A stretch of 64,000 nt of DNA, from assembly GCA_951406725.2 (NCBI GenBank), contig OX597818.1:52452001-52516000 (forward strand), in the 5' to 3' direction. Shown here piece after piece: positions 30,566 through 34,139 of this stretch. Origin of the DNA: Octopus vulgaris (taxonomy: Eukaryota). Numbering within the stretch: the first letter of the stretch is position 1; the number at the start of each line of letters is the position of its first letter. The notes under the pieces were generated by a model, which did no database searches, was not told the origin of the DNA, and was given only the letters and a program-made list of their open reading frames with translations. The position numbers were made by a program, and so were the translations under genes.

Positions 30566-31624
30566 ATATATATATATATATATATATATATATATATATA
30601 TATATATATATATACATACATGCATGTATGCGTACATACATCATACATACATATTGGGTTCAGACATTCTGTAGAAGAGATTAACTATATGAAAAAATTC
30701 ATCGATGTTTGCAAATATATTTGTTTAACCACAAAATTTATCTGCTTATACAAATATTCTTTACTTGTTTACATATAATTATTTTATCTACAGATCAAAA
30801 AAAAAGGAAAGAATTATTCTGTCTAATCAAATACTCCTTCGAATGTTCCATCTCTTTATTGAGCACATCAACTGATAAAAAAATGACAAAAAAAAAAAAA
30901 AAAAACGAAACGAAACATAAATCCCCAAACAAGCAGAATGGTTGAAAAGGGTCTGTCTATGGATATAGAAACGATAAATGCTATATTAAACGAAGATACA
31001 AAAGAAAGCATCGGTTTATGTATTTTTAATTATCGCATACAAATAAATAAATAAATAAAAGTATGGTGGAACACATCTCCGAAAAACATTCTCCCTCTCA
31101 AAAATTGCAGCTTCACTTCTGTCTTTCTTTTTTTTTTCTCTCTCTCTTTCTGTATGTATGTTTTATATTGGCAGAATCGTTAATGCTCTTAGCAGAATGT
31201 CATCTGTTTTACGTTCAAATTTCGCCGAGGTCGACTCTGCTTTTCTTTCACCTTAAAAACCTTTGGCGCTGTCCTAAAATTTGAACTCATTACATATATA
31301 TGTATATATATATATATATATATATACATATCCCGTCGAAGACAATGAATGAGCGTCAACTTTTGTCAAACGTCTTGAACAAATGAATTGTTTATAATGA
31401 TCAAATATATATATATATATATATATATATATACATATACATACATGCATGCATAAAACACACTAACACACGCACACGCACATATATATATCTTAGTAGC
31501 TTCTAAGCTGACGTGAATACAGCATGGACTTCTTTGTCTTCTTAACCTCTTAAGAGGATTTAGGTAAACTTATACAAATTTGTCCAACTGATTAAATAAA
31601 TTCTATTTATTTATTTATTTATTT

Positions 31625-31712
31625 ATGTAGCTGAGGATAGCTCTGCATTTAGATTGATGTAATGATTGCACTGTTCAATTAAATGGAGTCGCTTGAAACG
31701 ATCGTACTGCAT
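31625..31712 (+). ncRNA. Type I hammerhead ribozyme (extended stem II, palindromic stem III)
   Basis: ATGTAG-CTGAGGA-[AGC...GCT]-GAAAC-GATC-GTA-CTGCAT; stem I ATGTAG/CTGCAT; ACGATCGT palindrome. Confidence 0.8.
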
Positions 31713-32187
31713 CACCTCTAGATATCCTGTTGCTTATTTTGATTATGTTATGTATGTGTATGTATGTTATGTGTATATATGTATATATATATATATATAT
31801 ATATATATATATATATATATATATATATATTATATATATATATATGTGCCTGTATGTATATACATTATTATATGTATGTATGGATATTCGCATGTGTATG
31901 TATGTGGGTTTGTATGTATATTTATTTTATATGTTCTTTTATGTATACTTATCTACTTCTTCCCTCCACTAATAACAACAACAACAAACTGGCTAAAAGC
32001 GATAGTCTTCTAATTTACCTAAAACTCTATTCAATTATTCTATTTATTCATTTATTTACTTTATCACTGATTCTTTTGACCACTCCCCAAGAAAGACAGT
32101 TTGTGCTCTGCTTACCCCAAAATTCCCCCACCATCACCCCATTAAATCTGCCTAAATGTATAAATGCTAGAACTTATTTTGACAGCA

Positions 32188-32238
32188 AGCTTCCTGATGA
32201 TTTCATTTGAATGAAACAGTTCTAGTCCTGTAGAAGCT
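32188..32238 (+). ncRNA. Type I hammerhead ribozyme
   Basis: AGCTTC-CTGATGA-TTTCATTTGAAT-GAA-ACAG-ttctagtc-CTGT-A-GAAGCT; perfect 6-bp stem I, 4-bp stem III, GUA cleavage triplet. Confidence 0.85.
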
Positions 32239-32484
32239 CCTTCTATAAAATAAATTAATTTACTCTGCTATGTATTGAGTACCTTGTTTACTGTGGTTAA
32301 CCCCGACTCAACCCGGGACCTACATATATATATATATATATATATATATATATATATATATATATATATATTATATTATATATATATATATATATATATA
32401 TATATATATATATATATATATATATATATATATATATATATATATATATATATATATATATATATATATATATATATATATATA

Positions 32485-33155
32485 TCAGAACTTTACGGTC
32501 CAGAGAACAAGGTGTCATCATACCACTTTTCTCCTCCTTTGTACGGCCACACCTCGAATACTGCTGCCCACTGTGGTCTCCCCATACAAGACAAAACATC
32601 TCTAGGATTGAATCACCCCAGATGGCACTCACTAAACGAATTGAAGGCATGGCTACTCTCGATTACTGGGATCGCCTTAAAGCCTTGAAACTCTACTCTC
32701 TCCAGCGTCGCCGTGAGCGGTACATCATTTATACGATGTGGAGAATATACCGCCAACTTTGCCCAAACGACCTGAACATTAGCTTCAAGGTTCATCCAAG
32801 ACTGGGACCACGGGCCATACGTCCCCTGCCCAATTCAAGATCACAGCATACATGTACACTGCAACATAATTTCTTTTCCTCAACAGGCCCTGCCCTATTT
32901 AACATTGTCCCGAAAGAGATCAAAGAGGAAAAGGATCCCATCAGCTTTAAACGGAGTCTGGATAGATTCCTTCAAGGAATACCAGATAAGCCACCCATAA
33001 TTGGATGCAACTCACCCAACAAAAACTCACTGCTTGAATGGACCATAAACAAAACTTGACTTAAACAGGATTCAAATAATCCTATCAGGTGGTGCTATTA
33101 AGTTAGACATGGCCTGGACCAATCTTTGGTCGAAACATATCTAAGTTTATCTAAG
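32485..33155 (+). mobile_element. 5'-truncated CR1-group LINE in (TA)n
   Basis: ORF 32622-33059 ([15 protein letters not shown]...[11 protein letters not shown]...NSLLEW) is paralogous to the 2254 ORF; shared 3' UTR GGTGGTGCTATTAAGTTAGACATGGCCTGG. Confidence 0.92.
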
Positions 33156-33220
33156 AATATATATATACACACACACACACACACACACACACACACACAC
33201 ACACACATATATATATATAT

Positions 33221-33520
33221 ACCAATTAAGGACTGAACACGAAAAGTGGACAGTCAACATGCTAGATATAGACGTCAAATCGCCATTCTCCACAAACTAT
33301 TATGTTCTCAGATCAAACTCAGCACTAAGTTTGATCTGAGAACATAATAGTTTGTGGAGAATGGCGATTTGACGTCTATATCTAGCATGTTGACTGTCCA
33401 CTTTTCGTGTTCAGTCCTTAATTGGTATATATAAATATTTTAAGCTTCGGATTCTTTTTTAATATGCTAGACCACTGGTCTTTATTGATAAATATCAATT
33501 TCTATCCTTAATTAATTTTA
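33221..33520. mobile_element. Fold-back element: perfect 99-bp inverted arms (33221-33319 / 33328-33426) plus ~95-bp extension; Penelope-like architecture
   Basis: Arms checked base by base; 8-nt spacer; (TA)n on both flanks. Confidence 0.75.
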
Positions 33521-33823
33521 TATATATATATATATATATATATGTAGTACAAAGTAAGATAGGAGTTATGAGGGTAACCCACTATGGGATATCAGTTATC
33601 CAATATACTGCTGGTGAAGTACCCAAATGCCAAATACATAAAAGCTTATAATTGCAATGCAATTAATTCATTTATTGTATCTCATCCATTTTCTTATTTG
33701 TATATATATATATATATATATATATATATATATATATATATATATATATTAAACAGGGTAGTAAACATTAAGGCAAGGCAAACATCTCAAGTCATATACG
33801 ATATTATTACAGGAAGAAATTCA

Positions 33824-33885
33824 AAATCTTACACCTGTTTCTGGGATATCCCCAACTATGGGATATTCCGTCATCAGAGAAAAAT
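33824..33885 (-). ncRNA. Type I hammerhead ribozyme
   Basis: Minus strand TTTCT-CTGATGA-C-GGAATATCCC-atagttg-GGGATATCCC-A-GAAAC-AGGT-GTA-AGA; strong stem II, short stem I. Confidence 0.7.
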
Positions 33886-34139
33886 GGGGGTAAAAATAGA
33901 GGAAATGAGAATGGTATGTATCAATAAGATGACGACATAGAAGAAAGAGTAAAAGAATAAGGAGATGGAAAGAAAGAAGAAAAAGAAACATAGAAGTTCG
34001 TGCCCCAGCATGGCCACAGCTCGCGAGCTGAAACTAGATGAAATAAAAATTCGTTATAACACTTATCTAGCGTACCAAATTGTTTTGATCACCTGTGAAC
34101 TAAATCCCCATACTTTGTATGTGTGTATATATGGCGCTA

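Follow-up and report, generated by a model that had tools for sequence, protein, structure and literature searches.

The window analysed here, a 64-kb (64,000-nucleotide) stretch of the Octopus vulgaris genome, is microsatellite-rich eukaryotic DNA with LINE fragments and an abundant repeat of 180–190 bp. It contains five complete type I hammerhead motifs (31625+, 32188+, 33880−, 53069+ and 56954−) and a decayed sixth (1905+), here called HH1 to HH6. The motifs, the islands that hold them and the inverted pairs in the window are as follows:

1905..1988, plus strand: HH6, decayed family A hammerhead (motif 1908+) in which U16.1 is changed to A, giving a broken cleavage triplet
31493..31746, plus strand: island A, ORF-less 3′ end of a family resembling Penelope-like elements (PLEs), between microsatellites (family A; second copy at about 1874–2102)
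31625..31712, plus strand: HH1, type I hammerhead (core 31631) with 6-bp stem I, U.U-closed 57-nt helix II and palindromic helix III
31933..32322, plus strand: island B, of multi-copy family B, found in contigs of four sequencing runs; 67-nt tail at 32256–32322
32188..32238, plus strand: HH2, type I hammerhead (core 32194) with a perfect 6-bp stem I and a short U.U-closed helix II
33209..33518: TA-flanked inverted pair with 114-nt arms (33209–33438, 98%) and, on one side, some 80 additional nt in front of (TA)n
33750..33998, minus strand: island C, a pyrimidine-rich leader, the ribozyme, then about 80 nt down to (TA)n
33827..33880, minus strand: HH3, complete core (33877), C.A-closed mismatched helix II and 3-bp stem I; matched by the relaxed descriptor only
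51916..52250: inverted 5′-truncated family D pair without a ribozyme, with a tail of about 100 nt on one arm
53057..53420, plus strand: island D, holding HH4 and starting at (TA)n, 21 nt upstream of the core
53069..53130, plus strand: HH4 (core 53075), A.A-closed helix II, 6-bp stem I, predicted cut after 53124
53508..53694: inverted pair (81%), each arm with an outward-facing decayed hammerhead-like motif, recognised by eye and failing the descriptors
56910..56954, minus strand: HH5, complete hammerhead (core 56949) with U.U-closed helix II and palindromic helix III, overlooked in the original prediction

Detection of the hammerhead motifs

Motifs were located with a strict type I descriptor (CUGANGA, GAAA and UH with three helices), which matched four times in the 64-kb window, at cores 31631+, 32194+, 53075+ and 56949−. 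With a stem I of at least 4 bp, the four strict matches compare with a mean of 0.025 in 200 block-wise dinucleotide shuffles. A relaxed descriptor, which added 33877−, gave five matches against a shuffle mean of 0.23 and a maximum of 3, and none of 300 shuffles reached five. The type I core with three helices, open in helix I, is therefore present in its strict form in HH1, HH2, HH4 and HH5 and in relaxed form only in HH3; HH6 fails at U16.1.

Hammerhead motifs can be matched by chance in AT-rich repetitive DNA, and some results would fit such an origin. A search with covariance models, one of the checks proposed with the original prediction, came out negative: no hammerhead family is among the best 150 of 295 Rfam matches for the window, nor among all 25 matches for the region 31500–34000. 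Folding energies of the hammerheads are no better than those of shuffles, with z-scores close to zero (−0.11 to −0.77), and HH3 is marginal. Set against these points are the excess of relaxed matches over the shuffles, the pairing retained in a diverged copy (HH6 versus HH1) and the matching, by eye, of published PLE ribozyme rows. Support for the motifs thus comes from the descriptor test and from homology rather than from Rfam or energy; we consider chance a highly improbable explanation of the set, and for HH1, HH2, HH4 and HH5 the shuffle tests with both descriptors rule it out. The hammerhead motifs in the window are genuine.

Every one of the six cores has a (TA)5 run within 200 bp, as compared with a background of 22% of non-run bases. 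The original prediction of three complete-core motifs with a fourth near 53065, all close to (TA)n, is thus borne out, HH3 with its 3-bp stem I being the weakest of them. Other parts of that prediction need qualification. The three motifs do lie in the proposed 2.3-kb cluster, but the grouping is not striking in itself (three of six motifs within 2.25 kb, P = 0.06 under uniform placement). The setting had been called non-coding, and the islands are indeed ORF-less, but the same 2.3 kb also contains a LINE-type RT 3′ fragment (32486–33160) and the inverted pair at 33209–33438. Finally, the description as sequence-unrelated applies to the islands as wholes, where the only strong alignment is between island A and its second copy and the match of A to B is an ATTT tract, but not to the ribozymes, which share family motifs: a U-closed helix II is common to HH1, HH5 and HH6, and HH3 and HH4 have in common 11 nt that span the end of helix II and helix III.

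Structure and surroundings of the ribozymes

In all six motifs helix II is closed by a 1×1 mismatch, which is U.U in HH1, HH2, HH5 and HH6, A.A in HH4 and C.A in HH3. We had entertained this mismatch at the base of helix II as a new architecture and rejected the idea, since U.U closure is known from an axolotl retrozyme and from Hydra-clade PLEs. Helix II is 57–59 nt long in HH1 and HH6. Helix III is palindromic in HH1, HH5 and HH6 and extends in a dimer; in HH2 it consists of 4 bp with an 8-nt loop. Cleavage is predicted after 31706 in HH1, after 32232 in HH2 and after 33830 in HH3. HH6 is 71% identical to HH1 over 153 nt, and its copy extends 77 nt further 3′ than island A. HH3 is probably decayed, and both HH3 and HH6 are likely to be dead as ribozymes.

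The 5′ flank from microsatellite to core measures 21, 49, 49, 197 and 349 nt (HH3 is omitted, as island C adjoins an abundant interspersed repeat near 34000). From the cut to the 3′ end there are 23–117 nt in families A and B, about 80 nt in C and about 295 nt in D. ORFs that start inside the ribozymes are short, and those compared with Pfam gave no match. Metagenome pattern scans with HH2 and with family A returned 0 loci.

Several other features of the window resemble the islands to varying degrees. The pair at 33209–33518 has a PLE-like layout, and the end of its extra 80 nt or so is weakly like the family D end (z 3.4); no ribozyme was found in it, and it could be either a PLE inverted pair or a MITE. 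The motifs of the pair at 53508–53694 have a G-C-closed helix II and a palindromic helix III. Their first core position deviates in both arms, and a natural core variant is conceivable. An island at 33545–33700, between two (TA)n runs, includes a stretch like helix II of HH3 (local alignment z 2.9) and is possibly a decayed relative.

Two LINE-type RT 3′ fragments, at 32486–33160 (+) and 2169–3309 (−), are 68% identical and each begins directly at (TA)n; the longer, 2169–3309, has an RVT_1 match, and from their motifs we take both to be CR1-like. At 42465–43922 (+), inside (AAT)n, lies the 3′ part of an RT, which has zf-RVT as well as a restriction-like endonuclease motif and is presumably from a Dong/R4-like element. 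A frameshifted RTE-like LINE occupies 5300–7917 (−; RVT_1, E 3.6e-34), with a related 3′ fragment at 54000–54470 (−). The repeat of 180–190 bp consists of two to three tandem units with an internal hairpin (945–1383, 16614–17041, 23116–23715, 45513–46061 and others), reaches up to 34-fold coverage in self-comparison of the window and, we assume, resembles octopus SINEs. There is also a 17-bp minisatellite of 23 copies (25528–25916, 94% matches) and a U6 snRNA gene or pseudogene at 62832–62935 (−), with an Rfam score of 101 bits, above the gathering score, and a damaged 5′ stem. The mix is similar to the repeat classes listed for O. vulgaris, which include RTE, Dong-R4, CR1 and Penelope-like elements (PMC13282606).

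Copies and ends of families A, B and D

Families A and D have second copies in the window and family B has them in sequencing-run contigs; C and E are single in the window. Multi-copy status is accordingly shown for families A, B and D. The two copies of family A end about 40 or about 117 nt past the cut, and 41 of 44 pair cells are paired between them with 2 double-sided changes, a value that 126 of 500 shuffles reach and that, with two sequences, is not significant. In family D, the downstream part of island D is homologous to 52034–52250, and the 3′ end of the pair at 51916–52250 at (TA)n is identical to that of island D.

Family B was followed in 4 of the 24 public sequencing runs listed for 31490–32320; the four carry three organism labels, and their contigs were aligned to island B only. 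The four contributed 1895, 1097, 237 and 88 contigs; the last set comes from a run only guessed to be RNA (X11), and no RNA data set is on record for 31490–32320. The summed depth is about 1e3 at the 5′ end and about 1.5e6 over the ribozyme (X2, X3), roughly a thousandfold increase, contig depth being different from copy number and dipping also where the window copy departs from the family. Among variants at 8% or more of the contigs, the only one in HH2 is N7 (32198), a free core position (21–62% of depth), and no compensatory change was seen. Fifteen variant rows fall just upstream of HH2 as compared with one inside, which we do not accept as a sign of selection because the depths differ at least 10-fold and rare variants would be hidden inside. 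A splice-acceptor-like site before stem I of HH2 was discarded, as it varies among contigs. A local depth peak at 32132–32163 ends in a TATA-like motif some 25–30 nt upstream of stem I; a conserved cis element or a mere mapping effect may lie behind it.

The ends of family B are informative. Loose ends in (TA)n occur before 31997 in all four runs (at least 5, 5, 4 and 2 contigs), with a depth step at the same place, and behind 32255–32259 in all four runs among the loose ends listed. The family has two 3′ ends (32255, and 32322 in the window copy), which lie past the cut by 23 and 90 nt. Further 5′ junctions are found at 32124 and 32188, and the window copy and other contigs reach at least 31933.

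The 5′ junction that recurs at 31997 could reflect a discrete subfamily of non-autonomous kind. Family B, at least, would then be a dispersed element of fixed length (about 31997 to 32255 or 32322), derived from a PLE pseudo-LTR, self-transcribed and mobilised in trans in the manner of a SINE. The shared junction with its depth step, the very high contig count and the roughly 260 nt upstream that contain no ORF all agree with such an element, and parts of the literature describe non-autonomous PLE derivatives and solo retrozyme monomers. However, at 31997 the depth amounts to about 1% of the value for the ribozyme, the other 5′ ends lie on both sides of it, and recurrent truncation at TA microhomology would yield an identical junction. 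We regard a non-autonomous family B as unlikely. The same low standing applies to a fuller version, in which family B would be a very high-copy dispersed hammerhead element of several related species, starting at 31997, a SINE-like derivative of a Hydra PLE distinct from tandem retrozymes, with a 4-bp helix III stable enough for cutting as a monomer, and in which the conserved 57-nt helix II extension of family A would possibly replace missing tertiary contacts.

Another conceivable source is tandem non-LTR retrozymes: each island would be a solo monomer, and expression would yield self-cleaved RNA circles of 250–400 nt. These elements, which are defined by tandem repeats and circular RNA (PMC7229834; bioRxiv 10.64898/2026.07.22.740005), are described as non-coding, 250–400 nt long, PLE-related and equipped with a type I hammerhead (Cervera and de la Pena 2020; Li et al. 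2026), as the islands are. Island sizes fit those of monomers (170–400 nt), mussel retrozyme ribozymes have no tertiary contacts, the axolotl HHR_Amex2 has U.U at the base of helix II (PMC7229834), and the 88 contigs of the guessed RNA run lie on island B. On the other hand, retrozymes are head-to-tail tandems in which each repeat has a ribozyme, the window has no such tandem, and the ends of the islands vary and adjoin (TA)n. Neither DNA nor RNA-guessed contigs of family B have a tandem or circular (go-back) joint among the joints listed, where the sole joint is a 41-nt skip, a weak absence given short contigs from four runs. Moreover, the inverted one-sided pairs indicate PLE-type integration of truncated copies. 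Because of the variable 5′ ends and the lack of a listed tandem joint, truncated copies of autonomous elements fit better than retrozymes, which we consider a distinctly improbable source of the islands; the non-autonomous retroelements of the original prediction are not supported.

Relation to Penelope-like elements

We favour, with a probability of roughly three in four, the interpretation that the islands are 5′-truncated 3′ ends (pseudo-LTR remnants) of at least five PLE families, each with a type I hammerhead motif; the families probably belong to the Hydra clade, which targets (TA)n. In published PLE insertions 5′ truncation is strong, an adjacent inverted copy is frequent, and there is a one-sided tail of 30–40 bp (PMC8557442). 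The traits of endonuclease-bearing (EN+) PLEs, namely 5′ truncation, inverted pairs and one-sided tails, are present in the window, although the tails are longer (about 65–100 nt). Families A, B and D show two 3′ ends and/or inverted 5′-truncated pairs in which the tail is one-sided, features that form the signature of PLEs (PMC8557442; PMC11167929). Neither a PLE RT/GIY-YIG remnant (Pfam, 150 of the 403 unmasked frames that have 45 aa or more, and motif searches) nor a single ORF with PLE RT, a CxCX5C linker together with a GIY-YIG located C-terminally and lacking CCHH turned up in the window, which is what truncated copies would lead one to expect; even so, no island has a physical connection to a coding element there, and this counts against the interpretation. 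A row of a published supplement attributes 6.83% of O. vulgaris to PLEs, with 190 families.

The Hydra clade is the closest published counterpart. In its tables, 26 of 27 families list a (TA)n target and 25 have a type I hammerhead not far from the 3′ end; among those 25, helix II is closed by U.U in 14 (PMC8557442, File S2). One listed family carries an attached inverted 5′-truncated copy, and one member, Hydra-1_Obim, has Octopus bimaculoides as host (Craig et al. 2021, PMC8557442). The window motifs agree in target, ribozyme type and position, U.U closure, and similarity of core and helix III arms. By eye, stem I, core and helix II base of HH6 look like those of Penelope-5_HM, and those of HH5 like those of Hydra-1_cRog, while the NV, SK and aMil rows contain the same helix III arms as HH2 and HH4 (PMC8557442). 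There are also differences: the window copies have no ORF, the ribozyme tabulated for Hydra-1_Obim has no mismatch closure, and none of the 25 Hydra families listed has a helix II as long as that of family A (57–59 nt) or a loop III as long as that of HH2 (8 nt) (PMC8557442). Six short window motifs are absent from the PMC8557442 supplement, so that these are not the families listed there. U.U closure also occurs in the axolotl retrozyme and C.A closure in a Chara PLE-X element (PMC8557442 files), which weigh against the Hydra assignment; the assignment is likely, and is drawn from ribozyme form and target rather than from a protein.

Minimal hammerheads of metazoan PLEs, thousands per genome, are described as solo and divergent, with close opposite-strand pairs (Cervera and De la Pena 2014, PMC4209133). 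They are like those of the window in being mostly single motifs ascribed to truncated PLEs, in many divergent families per genome, with palindromic helix III and no loop-loop contacts. Their consensus has one extra base followed by G10.1-C11.1 and no real helix III, in contrast to the 1×1 mismatch and 2–4-bp helix III of the window. Dimeric PLE hammerheads have also been described (Lunse et al., as cited in PMC6765202).

By analogy with such elements, a possible history of the islands can be outlined. A GIY-YIG endonuclease, encoded by an autonomous partner presumably of the Hydra clade, would nick a (TA)n tract. Downstream of the ribozyme, RT would use either of two internal start sites, which lie past the cut by 23 or 90 nt (family B) or by about 40 or 117 nt (family A), and would mostly stop after 100–400 nt, leaving a short ORF-less piece and at times an inverted pair with a one-sided tail. 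We propose that the cluster arose because different families inserted in the same TA-rich tract. Since the copies extend across the cleavage site, the RNA that served as template was likely uncleaved; the depth of family B, which does not rise downstream of that site, agrees with uncleaved templates. The ribozymes would cleave weakly, as dimers or with the help of protein.

A precedent for this scheme, and the one reconstituted system, is Poseidon PAc of Anolis, whose endonuclease nicks AT-rich DNA and whose tail is defined by two internal RT starts; uncleaved RNA is its main template, and its ribozyme cleaves only with protein (Frangieh et al. 2024, PMC11167929). Apart from their longer tails, the window islands fit every point of the published model that can be read from DNA. 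Poseidon PAc belongs to another clade, and the start of its ORF lies within the ribozyme, an arrangement that is not apparent in the window.

The original proposal, that several families of (TA)n-associated repeats carry type I hammerheads of PLE type, is thus supported, with PLE as the probable origin. Its suggestion of an undescribed system does not hold, since Hydra-clade PLEs are already published as (TA)n-targeting and hammerhead-bearing, with the same helix II closure and a member in O. bimaculoides (PMC8557442). Our literature search returned no paper on these particular families, and for hammerhead ribozymes in octopus only Craig et al. was relevant.

Rfam misses all of the window motifs among the matches listed, which gives the descriptor-based set practical value. 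HH2, which is compact and intact with a 4-bp helix III, and HH1, with its long helix II, offer handy natural constructs with which to ask whether PLE hammerheads closed by a mismatch cleave, and also why PLEs keep hammerheads, the reason for which is called unclear in the literature. If the islands are truncated ends of Hydra-like PLEs, the finding is an ordinary one, by which a known PLE clade would gain five or six ribozyme families that are not yet listed, and the occurrence of six motifs in 64 kb suggests that such remnants are dense in the octopus genome.
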